Below are positions 12,881 through 25,863 of a stretch of DNA of 48,445 bases, piece after piece. The position numbers and the translations under genes were made by a program. The notes under the pieces are model-generated. The model was not told the origin of the DNA. It worked only from the letters and a program-made list of their open reading frames with translations, and made no database searches. Each line of letters opens with the position of its first letter. Positions within the stretch are counted from its first letter, which is position 1. The stretch lies in IMG/VR virus record IMGVR_UViG_2571042005_000001, positions 1-48,445 of that record, one strand, 5' to 3'. This DNA comes from a virus. Taxonomy: Duplodnaviria > Heunggongvirae > Uroviricota > Caudoviricetes.

Positions 12881-12934
12881 ATAGACCATTTTTTAAAAAT
12901 AGTCTATAATGATTTGCATGGGAGGACAGACATG
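12881..12934 (+). promoter_or_regulatory. Family B promoter plus start module
   Basis: TTTAAAAATAGTCTATAATGATTTGC..GGAGGACAGACATG. Confidence 0.85.
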
Positions 12935-13285
12935 ACCTACACGAACAGCCAACAGCTTTACAGCGACATCAACGGACTCAAAAGCTACCTCACCAAACGG
13001 CACGCCAAAAAAGGCCCAGCAGGGCTCCAGAACCTTCCAAAAGAAACCCAAGCCAAAATCCCCGAAATTGAAGCCCGCATCACCAAAAACCTCGAATGGT
13101 TCGACGTCCAGAAACGCACCGAAATCACCCAGAGAGGCCCCTTCTTCACTGGACCCGAAGTCACCGAAGCCCTCTCTGAAAACCTCCTCGGGAATCCAGA
13201 GAAACTCCATCGGTTCCTCAAAGGCATCCAGTGCGCCCTGCTCGACCAAAAGGAAATCAAATGGTTTGAAGACATCCTCAAATAA
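12932..13285 (+). CDS. Hypothetical protein (family B cassette)
   Basis: MTYTNSQQ...; 117 aa; followed by a terminator. Confidence 0.75.
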   Translation: MTYTNSQQLYSDINGLKSYLTKRHAKKGPAGLQNLPKETQAKIPEIEARITKNLEWFDVQKRTEITQRGPFFTGPEVTEALSENLLGNPEKLHRFLKGIQCALLDQKEIKWFEDILK

Positions 13286-13286
13286 G

Positions 13287-13313
13287 CAAAGCCCCCCGAG
13301 AGTTCGGGGGGCT
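13287..13313. terminator. Intrinsic terminator
   Basis: AGCCCCCCGA gagt TCGGGGGGCT. Confidence 0.7.
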
Positions 13314-13343
13314 GAATCACAACTCGCAAACCAATGCCAGCAA

Positions 13344-13523
13344 TCAAGACTTCTGGGAGTCCCCCTTGCCTGACGGACCTTGATTCTGAACCAACGCATT
13401 AAATGCGATGGGGGCCATCGCCAAAAGCAGATTTTGAAACAAATCTCGGTCTTTAAACCACCCAAACACCAAAGCCAACAGCACAAGCGAAGCCAAAAGA
13501 ACCTGCAATACACGATTGCTCAT
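13344..13523 (-). CDS. 59-aa membrane protein
   Basis: AAAGGA RBS; MSNRVLQVLLASLVLLALVFGWF with two hydrophobic segments. Confidence 0.55.
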   Translation of the reverse strand: MSNRVLQVLLASLVLLALVFGWFKDRDLFQNLLLAMAPIAFNALVQNQGPSGKGDSQKS

Positions 13524-14379
13524 GGGTATTCCTTTCAGAACCACGTTTCCAGCTTCGGAAGGCTTGACAAAGAGCCACATGCCAAAAACGACATAAACGC
13601 GTATACTGTGACTCAAGTTCGGACCTCCATGGCCGGATGGAAGCTGCGCCCGACCGTCGGAAGTCAGGCACAGCACTCAAAACTCAGGGCCTTTCACCAG
13701 AGCGCCCCAGAAAAGATCAGTGTTCATGATTGGAAGTCGGAAGCACTGGTCTTTTCCTTGCGCACGCATTGTTCATGTTCATCACCCCCACAACCGACAG
13801 GCAAATCTGAAACTGAACAGACCACGATTGATCCCCATGGAACTCTGGGCATTGCGCACCAGTTGCTCCTCGAAGGGCTCGATCATGTCATCTCTTGCCC
13901 AGTTCTTTAATTCGCCAGTCAGCACATTCATGTAGAGCAGTGTACTGCAAGATTGAAGGAAAGTGTTTTCGTTGTCTGATGGCGGATTGTTGACGTTTGC
14001 GGTATGTTAAACACCTTCATTTGGACTTTGTGGAACGTAAAAAAGACACGATGGGCGGAAGGTTTCAGAGTTCAAAAACCATGATGTCGCCAGTCTCATC
14101 AGACGGGTAACGTGCCAGTCTCACACCACAGTGATGTGCTGGCCCCACAAAATCAGAATAGAGGCAGAACCGAAGCACACCTCGTTAACGCGAAATGATC
14201 CTGCAGCATTGAAGGTAGGGAGTGGCTTTAATCAACCTCTTGATTTAAGGGCATTCACGGAAAAGCTTTTTCTTGTGAACCGGTCAAAGAAGACCCACAG
14301 TTCACCGAAGTCCCGCAGTGCACTTAAACTGACCTGAGGTCCGACGCAGTTTGACGCTCTGGCGTTGTATTTTGATCTC

Positions 14380-23037: not shown

Positions 23038-23038
23038 G

Positions 23039-24499
23039 CTAGAGTTTGCGGAGTTCCTTGATCAGCCCAGAGCGCCCCTGCGCACTTCCCAACTTCCTCT
23101 GGAAGGTGCGCATCAAATTCTCCTTGCGGGACAGCGCCTCGTGGATCCGCTCATCCATCGAATCCCGGCACACCAAATCAAAATACGTCACCTCCCGACC
23201 CTGCCCGATCCGGTGAATACGGTCCTCACCCTGCAACCTGACCCGGTACGGAAAATCATGGTCGTAAAACACCGCAAAAGCACACTCATTGAGCGTCAAA
23301 CCCCGACCGCCGCACCTCGGACTGGCCACCAAAACCCCACCCGGGGTGTCCCGCCACCCCTGCAGGTTCTGCATGCGCCGCTCCAGAGGCAGAGCCCCAT
23401 GGAATTCGAACACTTCATGGTCCATGCCGAGGTCCGCGACCATCTGGCGGATGGAGTGATGGAACACCGACCACACCACCACCCGTTCCCCCTCCGGAAC
23501 CTGCCTCAGGACCTGCCGGAGGGTGTTGATGCGATCATGCTCCACGGTGTGCATGCGGTGACCGGAGCGCAGGCCTTTGCGGATTTCGTATTCGGTGGCG
23601 GTGTCATGCCAGTACCCTGAGCAGATTTCCCGGAGGGCCGTGAACAGCTTGAACAAGTGGTGGCTGCGGAAGTTCTCTGCCGGCATGGACAGCAACTCCA
23701 TTTTCGCCTGGTGGTACAGGGTGCGCTGCTCGTGGGTCATCGAAAAATAGTGCGTGCAGTAACGCTTTTTCGGCAAGTCCACGCATTCCTCTTTTTTGAT
23801 CTGGAACACGTAAGGCTGAATCTTCCGGGTGAGCAGGTCGGTGTTCAAATTCTGCACCACCAGCTCGGGATAATCCTTGTGGAACTCTAGGTGGTTCTGG
23901 GAAAAACTGTAGTAACTGTGGTACCCGAGGATTTTCGGGGACAGGAAGTACATCTGGCTGAACAGATCACCGTAACTCTCGCAGGCGGCGGATCCGGTGA
24001 GCAGGAACCGGTAGCGGGCTTTCTTGCCGAGCAGGGTGATGCGCTTCGTGCGGGTCGCAGTGTGCCCTTTGATCAGGTCCCCTTCATCGACCACCACCAG
24101 GGTGTTTTCGGTGATCAGACTGTGGGTGGCCAGAGTGACCCGACTGGACTGGCTGAACGACTCAAGGCCCACCACGTAAAAGTCCGCCTCCGGGATCTTC
24201 CCGACCCTCGTGGACGATGTGAACACGCACACCCTGGGGTTTTTGATGTGCTTGTGGAGTTCCATCTGCACGTTCTGCAGGGTGTTCACCGGGCAGATGT
24301 ACACCACCCGGTCGATTTTCTCCCAGCGGTCTTGGATCATGCCGATCACCGTGCGGGTCTTGCCGGTGCCGGGATCCATGAACAACCCTCCGATCCGCAG
24401 TCTCCCGAGGTGCTCCTGGGCTGCCCGCTGGTGCTGCATGGGGGCGGTGAGGAGTTCGAGGGGGGCTTTAATCGTCGAGGAGGCTGGGATCGACACCAT
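23039..24499 (-). CDS. SNF2-family helicase/ATPase
   Basis: MDPGTGKT, VVDEGD, LLTGS, GGRGLTL and QGEDRIHRIGQ motifs. Confidence 0.9.
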   Translation of the reverse strand: MVSIPASSTIKAPLELLTAPMQHQRAAQEHLGRLRIGGLFMDPGTGKTRTVIGMIQDRWEKIDRVVYICPVNTLQNVQMELHKHIKNPRVCVFTSSTRVGKIPEADFYVVGLESFSQSSRVTLATHSLITENTLVVVDEGDLIKGHTATRTKRITLLGKKARYRFLLTGSAACESYGDLFSQMYFLSPKILGYHSYYSFSQNHLEFHKDYPELVVQNLNTDLLTRKIQPYVFQIKKEECVDLPKKRYCTHYFSMTHEQRTLYHQAKMELLSMPAENFRSHHLFKLFTALREICSGYWHDTATEYEIRKGLRSGHRMHTVEHDRINTLRQVLRQVPEGERVVVWSVFHHSIRQMVADLGMDHEVFEFHGALPLERRMQNLQGWRDTPGGVLVASPRCGGRGLTLNECAFAVFYDHDFPYRVRLQGEDRIHRIGQGREVTYFDLVCRDSMDERIHEALSRKENLMRTFQRKLGSAQGRSGLIKELRKL

Positions 24500-25325
24500 T
24501 CACCTCCTGCTGTGCTTCCAGGTGCTTCCTGGCAGCTTTGGGGCTCTGGACCAGCAGGGCTTGTTCGAGCACCTCCCGGAACTGGTCGGCCACCGCTCTG
24601 GCTGCAGGGCTGAACGAAAAGCCGTGCATTTCCGCGAAGTCCTCCACCTCCAGGTGGTGCTCTGGGGGCACGAGCACCGAACCGTCAGCATATTTTGCTG
24701 CGGTGATCCGCATGGCTTTGTCGTACAAATCTTTGTTTTTCGGCCAGGACAGGGAAAAGTAATTCTTCCGCGGTCCTCTGGTGACCACGGTGACCCGGCA
24801 GGGGTTCTCTGAGTTGAACGCCCCACGGACCACCATGTCCTGCACCCCTGTGTGCCTGAGGCCCACCCGGAAGCCAGCCTGCAGGATGTTGTGTGCGGTG
24901 CTGGCCATCACGTCTGCCTGGCGGTCCATGGGGCAGTCCCGTTCCCACACCCCGAGGGTGCCGTTCCAGGAGAAGTTCAGGCTGGTGATGAGCACCCGGA
25001 AGGGCTCCAGTTTCTCGGGGAAGGACAGCTGGATGGTCGGGCCGGACTGGCTGACCCAGCACACCGTGCGGGTGCGGTGCGGACTGCTTTCCGGGAGGAG
25101 GATGGTGCTGGTTTCAGCCCCGAGCGTGCTGGTGGGGGTGAGGGTCCTGAGGGCCATGCCCATCAGGGCACTGAGCTCCTCAGGGGTGTAGGCGTCAAAT
25201 TTGGCTTGCAGGTCTTCAGGGATGTGCAGGCGGGGTCGCCTGAGCACCCCCTTTTTGGGTTTGCGTCCCCTCGGGTCTTTTTCCGGTCCGCTTTTAAGTT
25301 TTTTCTGGTCCGTTTTTGATTTCAC
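24468..25325 (-). CDS. Hypothetical phage protein
   Basis: 285 aa; basic N-terminus (PRGRKPKK); overlaps the SNF2 start. Confidence 0.75.
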   Translation of the reverse strand: MKSKTDQKKLKSGPEKDPRGRKPKKGVLRRPRLHIPEDLQAKFDAYTPEELSALMGMALRTLTPTSTLGAETSTILLPESSPHRTRTVCWVSQSGPTIQLSFPEKLEPFRVLITSLNFSWNGTLGVWERDCPMDRQADVMASTAHNILQAGFRVGLRHTGVQDMVVRGAFNSENPCRVTVVTRGPRKNYFSLSWPKNKDLYDKAMRITAAKYADGSVLVPPEHHLEVEDFAEMHGFSFSPAARAVADQFREVLEQALLVQSPKAARKHLEAQQEVNGVDPSLLDD

Positions 25326-25388
25326 TGTGCCTGTCCTCGTTTTCCGGGCTTCTCTGGCTGTCCACCCTTCAAGAACATCTTACCCTGA

Positions 25389-25418
25389 ATTGAATTGGAG
25401 TACAATTCAATGTATGCT
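25389..25418 (+). promoter_or_regulatory. Promoter with operator-like palindrome
   Basis: ATTGAATTG-N5-CAATTCAAT (25389-25411) overlapping TTGAAT-17-TATGCT. Confidence 0.6.
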
Positions 25419-25467
25419 GAAAGCACCCCGGCACCAGCCAGAGAACACGCCGGGCAGGAGGACAGAC

Positions 25468-25863
25468 ATGAAACTGCACGGAGGACCCTTCATCGGCGGC
25501 ACCCAGATCCACCCACTCCACAGCGTTTACGCTCTGGAGGTCACAGCGGACCCCAGCAAAATCCACGGCACCGATCCCACAGGGAGGCTTGCGCGGTTCC
25601 TCGCAGCGAACCTGCAGAACACCTTCTTCCGCGTCCGAGGGGAAAAAGGACTGGTGCTGGAGTTCGACAACCCGGACCCCAGGAACGCCGTTGCCTTCAA
25701 CCAGCCCAGAGTGAAAACCGAGTGGTTTTTCCAGCCTTACGAAACCTTCCGGTCTGTGGAGGATTACCTGCTGAAAATCAGCGGGGACATCGTCCGACAG
25801 GTGGAGAAAGACCAACCCCAGAACCTCGTGATTCGCTCTGGTGGACAAGAATTCAGATTCTGA
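25468..25863 (+). CDS. Hypothetical protein (family B start module)
   Basis: AGGAGGACAGACATG start; 131 aa; hairpin CCCGAGAG/CTCTCGGG downstream. Confidence 0.7.
   Translation: MKLHGGPFIGGTQIHPLHSVYALEVTADPSKIHGTDPTGRLARFLAANLQNTFFRVRGEKGLVLEFDNPDPRNAVAFNQPRVKTEWFFQPYETFRSVEDYLLKISGDIVRQVEKDQPQNLVIRSGGQEFRF

Follow-up and report, generated by a model that had tools for sequence, protein, structure and literature searches.

A repeated gene-head module in the accessory arm of a Deinococcus phage-plasmid, gene exchange at one of its slots, and a candidate antisense RNA complementary to it

The stretch of DNA analysed here (positions 1–48,445 of IMG/VR record IMGVR_UViG_2571042005_000001, hereafter the window) represents the first 48,445 bp of the 112,445-bp phage-plasmid contig C14 in a host assembly of 5.08 Mb. 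The element is a Deinococcus phage-plasmid: on C14, plasmid functions are represented by RepA and ParA, and phage functions by an endolysin, a PAPS reductase/DUF3440 of phage type and an SNF2 helicase, next to modification/defence proteins (a TGT/DpdA-like protein, methyltransferases and an MmeI-type enzyme) and very large open reading frames (ORFs) that look tail-related from their size and position and match no family. The subject of this report is a short repeated module, made up of a 14-mer ending in a start codon, a second box and, in some copies, a promoter, which in the window heads accessory-arm genes at 12.9–25.5 kb; this arm is mostly transcribed leftward from the region 25326–25467.

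The 14-mer, GGAGGACAGACATG, is present in eight exact copies in the window, at 12921–12934 (+), 16221–16234 (-), 16930–16943 (-), 18231–18244 (-), 19527–19540 (-), 19871–19884 (-), 22983–22996 (-) and 25457–25470 (+), and was matched 0 times in 100 shuffles (expectation 0), in agreement with a preliminary description of this DNA that had counted eight copies ending in start codons. The whole 5.08-Mb assembly contains nine copies, all on C14; the ninth copy, at C14:76579 (+), is one of those with the promoter, and its product begins MNSQI. Eight of the nine lie inside 12.6 kb of accessory genes, and all nine end in the ATG of an ORF, the ORFs ranging from 108 to 405 amino acids (aa). The genomes of the other 124 Deinococcaceae species hold 0–2 copies each. 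Allowing two mismatches added a single site in the window, at 25934. Degenerate members of the family were found at the start of a 285-aa gene (25323–25339, minus strand) and at 25935–25946. The second box, [A/C]CAGCCA, is present with all nine 14-mers. The modules of the window and the genes that they head are as follows.

12880–12951, plus strand: full module with -35 TAGACC (12882–12887), -10 TATAAT (12905–12910), 14-mer (12921–12934) and ATG at 12932; its displaced box, GAACAGCCA, lies at 12943–12951
12932–13285, plus strand: 117-aa ORFan headed by this module, followed by a hairpin (13290–13313)
16213–16244, minus strand: promoterless module, 14-mer (16221–16234) and box GACCAGCCA, heading a 212-aa ORFan (15585–16223); it keeps AATGATTTGA upstream, a remnant of the promoter -10/leader
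16922–16943, minus strand: promoterless module (14-mer and box) heading a 214-aa ORFan (16288–16932) and preceded by an attenuator-like hairpin (16975–16996)
18220–18286, minus strand: full module with promoter (18255–18283), 14-mer (18231–18244) and box, heading a 405-aa ORFan (17016–18233)
19519–19540, minus strand: promoterless module (14-mer and box) heading a 184-aa ORFan (18975–19529); right boundary of the variable slot described below
19860–19926, minus strand: full module with promoter (19895–19923), 14-mer (19871–19884) and box, heading a 108-aa ORFan (19547–19873); left boundary of the variable slot
22972–23038, minus strand: full module with promoter (23007–23035), 14-mer (22983–22996) and box, heading a 209-aa ORFan (22356–22985), after which come a 150-aa ORF and the PAPS-reductase/DUF3440 and GNAT genes; 66 of 67 positions are identical to 18220–18286
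25323–25378, minus strand: degenerate member in the leader of the 285-aa gene (24468–25325), with box ACAGCCAG upstream and then GAGGACAGGCACA-GTG
25415–25478, plus strand: module with a different upstream region, with box ACCAGCCAG (25433–25441) in a hairpin loop and 14-mer (25457–25470), heading a 131-aa ORFan (25468–25863)

Five copies, four in the window and the ninth, are full modules having about 60 bp upstream in common, with TAGACC or TATACA, a 17-nt spacer and TATAAT, and four copies inside operons are of a short form consisting of motif and box with no promoter. As described earlier, the promoter-bearing copies of the window (12921+, 18244-, 19884- and 22996-) carry TAGACC/TATACA-17-TATAAT together with (G/A)ATTTGC, and an imperfect palindrome extends over their -35 and -10 hexamers. 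These predicted promoters match the sigma70-type consensus at 10 of 12 bases. Their layout is that of a 29-bp near-palindrome, TATA(G/T)AC-N15-GT(C/A)TATA, which is found with five of the nine copies, is confined to the five full modules across C14, and is probably a repressor operator. An operator-only copy of the palindrome, as a possible marker of a repressor gene, was sought on C14 and none was found. The predicted leader of the promoter-bearing copies is about 17 nt long and almost wholly composed of the motif, i.e. a GGAGG Shine-Dalgarno sequence, the spacer ACAGAC and the ATG; transcription is predicted to start 3–5 nt ahead of GGAGG. In three of the four window modules that were folded, the module RNA is less structured than its shuffles (-2.8 to -5.7 kcal/mol, z +1.0 to +1.3); the 12921 copy alone reaches -10.3 kcal/mol.

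Downstream of the ATG, and no more than 30 nt away from it, eight of the nine copies have the sequence GA[AC]CAGCCA (0.005 expected), the box representing codons 2–4 in seven copies. Seven of the nine products start with M(N/T)S(Q/H), including the six window products for which this shared N-terminus had already been noted. In the 12921 copy the box is shifted 9 nt further downstream, giving a product that begins MTYTNSQQ with NSQ as residues 5–7, and in the 25457 copy no box lies downstream, ACCAGCCAG being found instead 15 nt ahead of the motif, where it falls in the loop of a hairpin of 6 bp. The distance between box and motif ranges from adjacent to 38 nt, with the box on either side of the motif. 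As read from its sequence, the gene head is a bipartite unit with variable spacing and order, which rules out an N-terminal peptide signal and argues against a rigid DNA–protein complex. A good ribosome site accounts for the GGAGG and the ATG but not for the spacer or the box, which have no pairing potential with 16S rRNA.

The module-headed proteins are otherwise unrelated, as had been proposed for six of them: no similarity was found past the first residues among the nine proteins and a tenth from a relative (BLASTP, no pair below E 0.08). Searches of these proteins against Pfam, PHROGs and NCBIfam gave no match, and the 405-aa and 209-aa proteins have no look-alikes in the ESM Atlas. The ~10 ORFan genes behind the module share predicted expression signals, and their co-regulation is likely since five identical promoter/operator copies are present. 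A 194-aa gene with weak similarity to ParB_N (18289–18873, minus strand, E 0.0045), located between the terminator of the 184-aa gene and the 18244 module, begins with an ordinary ribosome site and has no module of this family. The region 25326–25467 is a divergent control region between the 285-aa gene (minus strand), the first of the leftward arm, and the 131-aa gene (plus strand), with paralogous leaders on both sides; its rightward promoter is covered by the perfect palindrome TTGAATTG-N5-CAATTCAA, and the region resembles a switch that has a repressor of its own.

Related elements, 85–97% identical, were found in four metagenomes (freshwater, aquaculture, drinking water and one more) and were compared with the window through eight contigs (L017, L018, L038–L040 and L042–L044). 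The Logan contigs of these relatives all break inside promoter repeats, as expected if the repeats are multi-copy in the relatives too. No relative was detected by megablast of window 12000–26000 against phage and plasmid collections, by IMG/VR scans with the 22-mer (motif plus box), SNF2, RepA and PAPS reductase, or by DNA and 285-aa protein searches of the 124 Deinococcaceae genomes, and in GTDB genomes and JGI metagenomes the 22-mer turned up only at isolated starts of unrelated genes (in Sphingomonas and others) and never in a multi-copy element. The start-associated motif is missing from the distant relative L041, a contig of a metagenome-assembled genome labelled Cyanobacteriota; L041 has terminase and tail genes and, at L041:7060–8016, a CRISPR-like array of 14 repeats with a period of ~71 bp.

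Constraint was counted at five loci covering 14-mer copies in three relatives, with a background divergence of 3–15%; the binomial P values are indicative only, as the relatives are non-independent lineages. The 14-mer had 3 changes in 196 positions vs 16.0 expected (P 6e-5), the 22-mer 9 in 308 vs 25.1 expected (P 1e-4) and the promoter 6 in 237 vs 17.9 expected (P 8e-4). At the start of the 285-aa gene, relative L042 has GAGGACAGACACG-ATG where the window has GAGGACAGGCACA-GTG.

The slot between the 19884 module and the 19540 motif was found in three states among the window and its relatives: 1) In the window and X4, it contains the 108-aa gene. 2) In L040, it contains an unrelated 93-aa ORF, homology stopping directly after ATGAACA and resuming at the next AGGAGGACAG. 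3) In X2/L043, it contains no gene; a single motif copy, within which the junction falls, links the promoter to the 184-aa gene, and the sequence on the upstream side of the -35 is unrelated. The empty slot in X2 is the outcome expected if two direct copies recombined. These comparisons of related sequences support cassette exchange at the module, and at this one slot the module appears as a linker where genes have been replaced or deleted between relatives, most simply by recombination between copies. The preliminary description had read the modules as marking a regulon and a recombination-driven system of cassette shuffling, to be checked by comparing relatives for gain and loss at the motif. 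When this was done, motif-bounded exchange was seen at one slot only, the 19884/19540 slot with its three states and breakpoints in the motif, while five other indels lay elsewhere and no recombination intermediate was observed; the regulon half is drawn from the five identical promoter/operator copies. The reading as a whole is supported in part.

Several events in the region did not break at the module: 1) A 734-bp cassette with the 214-aa gene, its own motif included, is absent in X2 and X3, the breakpoints being at the gene ends. 2) A 256-bp segment at the PAPS-reductase/GNAT junction (window 20449–20704) is missing in X2, X3 and L040, where GNAT has 156 aa vs a 223-aa ORF in the window. 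3) The DNA after the terminator at 13290–13313 has been replaced among relatives. 4) X4 has extra genes after 15581. 5) The DNA after 26144 is variable among relatives. The module was used by three of about eight events while modules occupy ~3% of the sequence, which represents an enrichment and falls short of proof of a dedicated mechanism. Defence/anti-defence content is also swapped between relatives (L038:183–1554 and L017:2690–6134 vs window 28052–30910 and 15581). X4 has HNH and AAA_21/AAA_15 genes at the place of the window's MmeI-type enzyme and, after the 212-aa gene, a 713-aa gene and a gene flagged as AcrVA2-like by a precomputed match that was not reproduced by a Pfam scan (E 0.01).

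The motif copy at 25935–25946 (plus strand) differs from the others in its context. It is followed by ATT (ACT in L038) with the next ATG 12 nt on, and is therefore not a ribosome site plus start. Its first 11 nt (GAGGACAGACA) are nevertheless invariant in all four elements; conservation of a non-start copy suggests that the motif is recognised by a trans-acting factor, which it probably binds. This copy lies in an intergenic stretch with the following features.

25868–25946, minus strand: candidate antisense RNA of ~79 nt, between the 131-aa and 61-aa genes, with a 5' end (AUGUCUGUCCUC) complementary to the motif; read on the plus strand, this DNA holds a box (25888–25897) and the motif (25935–25946)
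25951–25980, minus strand: TG-extended promoter-like site, TTGGCG-18-TAAAAT, from which the candidate RNA is predicted to start at 25944–25946
25959–26144, plus strand: gene for a basic protein of 61 aa, in which a disordered arm, a candidate strand (AVRLT) and two helices are predicted and which resembles ribbon-helix-helix (RHH) proteins

In its predicted layout, the candidate RNA begins with an unpaired 5' end that matches, as its complement, the Shine-Dalgarno sequence, spacer and AU of the motif; two hairpins follow, one of 6 bp and a GC-rich one of 8 bp with a loop complementary to the box, and then a U-run. Its fold has a z of -3.7. Both promoter-like hexamers are invariant in the four elements, and the minus-strand -10 overlaps by two bases the plus-strand TAGGAT (25947–25952), earlier read as the -10 of the 61-aa gene; since the -10 hexamers overlap, the two promoters would exclude each other. 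The 79-nt stretch had 8 changes vs 24.0 expected, the minus-strand U-run is kept in all relatives with divergence jumping straight after it, and 14 of 14 pairs are kept in all four sequences, with one compensatory hairpin change (A-U to G-C) in L042. The net pairing gain of the candidate RNA, taken as cofold differences allowing intramolecular structure because whole-length duplex energies are uninformative, is -10.8 to -18.3 kcal/mol at the nine module starts and -14.2 kcal/mol at the start of the 285-aa gene vs -4.3 ± 2.9 kcal/mol at 129 other C14 starts, a contrast that follows from the complementarity by construction and is no independent test. Four wastewater 'RNA-Seq' runs contain 13–24% of the sequence words of 25460–26150. 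Rfam searches of 12000–27000 at E up to 1, phage antisense families and C4 included, gave no match. A covariance model of the candidate RNA found no homologue elsewhere and only weak matches, two of which, on G119:C5, were rejected as a tRNA plus terminator and a thiolase gene start. An ORF reading from ATG 25946 on the minus strand was likewise rejected as non-coding, being 60 aa long in two elements and 26 aa in two others. Hfq (PF17209) was undetected in the 97%-complete host assembly, the same search being positive in 5 of 14 control genomes, and a host of this kind would fit long perfect pairing by the candidate RNA.

The reading that we prefer, with confidence a little short of even, is that the module may be at once a portable gene head, an exchange linker and the docking site of a shared regulator, most likely the candidate antisense RNA. 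That this regulator is the ~79-nt minus-strand RNA (25946–25868) is put forward somewhat more cautiously. The RNA segment from the Shine-Dalgarno sequence to codon 4 would be letter-perfect because it docks one trans-acting regulator; the free 5' end of the candidate RNA would pair with the Shine-Dalgarno sequence, spacer and AU(G), and its hairpin loop with the box, occluding ribosome binding on all module mRNAs together, and genes newly recombined at the module would automatically fall under its control. More tentative still is the proposal that the recombination linker is itself the regulatory target, i.e. a private start cassette which docks a two-seed antisense RNA born from antisense transcription of a duplicated leader.

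Several observations weigh against this reading. Three neighbouring box-plus-motif units, in the leaders of the 285-aa and 131-aa genes and in the DNA preceding the 61-aa gene, are paralogues of one another, so that both halves at the RNA locus reflect descent and not antisense function; an argument that box and motif cannot have met there by chance was dropped for this reason. The plus strand folds better than the minus strand (-38.9 vs -29.5 kcal/mol, z -5.1), its hairpin being extended by two G-U pairs; this hairpin may be mainly the terminator of the 131-aa gene, or bidirectional, and the minus-strand terminator could simply end the convergent genes at 26148–27397. The compensatory change does not tell the strands apart, and the candidate hairpin was unlisted in a simple terminator scan, its loop exceeding the limit of that scan. 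The motif variant GGAGGACCGAC of a relative would weaken the pairing. As for the linker, five of eight indel events in the region show no break at the module, and selection on illegitimate events can also give breakpoints at conserved gene boundaries.

A protein may instead recognise the motif, the main rival explanation, which we regard as unlikely though it has points in its favour: the 61-aa RHH-like protein would bind GAGGACAGACA as DNA, or this or another protein would bind the motif on mRNA as a translational repressor, as RegA of T4 does. In the DNA-binding version, the 61-aa protein would act as a repressor of its own promoter and would stop transcription inside operons as well as immediately after each of the five module promoters. 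The motif indeed lies in the spacer (TTGCGT to TAGGAT) of a plausible promoter of the 61-aa gene, the -35 of which is overlapped by the inverted repeat GCGTCA-N5-TGACGC, and conservation of the 25935–25946 copy, which is not a start, would suit a protein factor; the plus-strand structure is also very stable. The basic arm, candidate strand and two helices predicted for the protein are compatible with RHH, but it has no sequence match in Pfam, NCBIfam or PDB and its AlphaFold2 monomer model is of low confidence (pLDDT 68). The motif itself is asymmetric and lacks the repeated or inverted subsites used by RHH dimers, and a box on either side of it at very different distances is hard to reconcile with a rigid DNA–protein complex but easy with RNA pairing. 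Recognition at the RNA level is also suggested by the orientation of all motif copies along their genes, each with its Shine-Dalgarno sequence and ATG.

Less probable again is an explanation with no trans-acting factor, in which a very efficient, unstructured translation start, together with the promoter, was copied before new genes and kept uniform through frequent recombination or gene conversion and ordinary selection for expression. The strong Shine-Dalgarno sequence, 6-nt spacer, ATG and unstructured RNA all fit such a start, the near-identity of the 18244 and 22996 copies (66/67) suggests recent conversion, and X2 carries a deletion between two motif copies. However, the spacer and box, though unable to pair with 16S rRNA, show conservation about five-fold stronger than background among the relatives; the box is still conserved when it lies 9 nt further downstream or upstream of the motif, as is the non-start copy at 25935–25946; and conversion tracts of 14–22 nt with sharp edges would be unusual. 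That the initial residues M(N/T)SQ act as a peptide signal, for instance in packaging, in degradation or as a target of the adjacent GNAT, with DNA conservation secondary, is very improbable and was set aside, since despite the M(N/T)S(Q/H) start of seven of the nine products and the GNAT gene in one operon, the box is displaced or untranslated in three members (residues 5–7 in the 12921 copy, the untranslated leader for the 25457 copy and for the 285-aa gene), codon identity extends to synonymous sites, indicating constraint on the nucleotides, and N and T at position 2 differ in methionine removal.

The preliminary description had named two analogues, the start-associated sequences (SAS) and extended start-associated sequences (ESAS) of mycobacteriophages and the promoter early stem-loop (PeSL) cassettes of T4-type phages. 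SAS of the Cluster K mycobacteriophages stand before the start codons, mostly ATG, of ~10–19 non-structural-arm genes that belong to different families, and an 'RNA or protein' partner was left open by their authors (Pope et al. 2011, PMC3203893). Both systems have a short asymmetric, gene-oriented repeat with a Shine-Dalgarno core just before many start codons, here with nine exact copies ending in ATG; SAS are absent from the host genome, and here all nine copies are on C14 with 0–2 in each related genome; about half of the copies have an upstream imperfect inverted repeat (ESAS), here five of nine; positions without rRNA pairing potential are conserved in both; and some Cluster K phages have one copy that is not at a gene start. 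In contrast, the consensus is GGGATAGGAGCCC there and GGAGGACAGACATG here, host and phage lineage are unrelated, and the conserved block here takes in the spacer, the ATG and the second box, usually codons 2–4. The inverted repeat here coincides with the promoter -35/-10, gene replacement at the motif is seen in relatives, and there is a specific candidate for the partner RNA. The module is accordingly a good functional analogue of SAS/ESAS, but it is not a homologue or a member of that group.

In PeSL cassettes, a stable, usually G/C-rich, terminating stem-loop defines the cassette, and crossovers were mapped between the -10 and the Shine-Dalgarno/ATG (Arbiol et al. 2010, PMC2839356). The likeness extends to repeated sigma70-like promoters before ORFans in a plastic region, to insertion, deletion and replacement between close relatives bounded by repeats (here one slot with three states), and to the position of the crossover, which at the junction found in this element also falls between -10 and ATG. 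The palindrome here is, however, A/T-rich with no stable RNA stem in three of four copies, four copies are promoterless, and the most conserved part is the translation start and not the promoter; the analogy holds for promoter repeats before ORFans and for repeat-bounded exchange but not for the stable stem-loop terminator. PeSL cassettes are reportedly also the subject of a second paper, by Comeau and colleagues in 2014.

Small phage antisense RNAs include sar of P22 and the CI RNA of P4; sar is antisense to the leader of the next gene and lies beside RHH repressor genes. The c4 RNA of P1/P7 is presented, in the citation of it given in PMC8198154, as an antisense immunity RNA with two separate complementary segments (Citron and Schuster 1990, as cited in PMC8198154). 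The candidate RNA would resemble c4 and sar in being a small phage RNA with exposed segments pairing with the ribosome-binding region of phage mRNA, and P1 is also a phage-plasmid. It differs in that one operon is concerned there whereas its would-be targets are ~10 dispersed unrelated genes, and in having no sequence or structure homology to these RNAs and no Rfam match.

Two further observations concern DNA near or beyond the modules. Window 13793–13988, in the variable DNA past the terminator of the 117-aa gene, matches C37:10664–10862 of the same genome at 79%; a ~75-nt core (13844–13920) matches many Deinococcus chromosomes, and 13844–13899 is also present in contigs of other organisms from three metagenomes. 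No match to 13793–13988 was found in Rfam or Pfam, a host-gene fragment or a small repeat being the candidates. Outside the window, at C14:111880–111990 (minus strand), an apparent 'family A' promoter is followed by a hairpin with GAGGACAGAC in its left arm; the 10-mer match to the family described here ('family B') is probably coincidental.

Catalogues of start-associated sequences in actinobacteriophages date back to 2011 but offer no mechanism, and PeSLs indicate that regulatory repeats can serve as gene-shuffling linkers; the present element unites PeSL-like and SAS-like traits in one module. Three features make the question testable, namely natural allelic states at the slot, a second box of variable position and a conserved non-start copy, and the variable position of the box argues for recognition of two separate RNA segments. 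If the preferred reading is true, a changing set of accessory ORFans, probably serving host takeover or anti-defence, would be under one switch in a host without Hfq, and Deinococcus genetics would gain a portable cassette for expression and regulation. On the more tentative proposal, any ORFan recombined at the cassette would come from the outset under a post-transcriptional switch common to the whole phage, which would offer phage start-associated sequences a concrete, testable mechanism.

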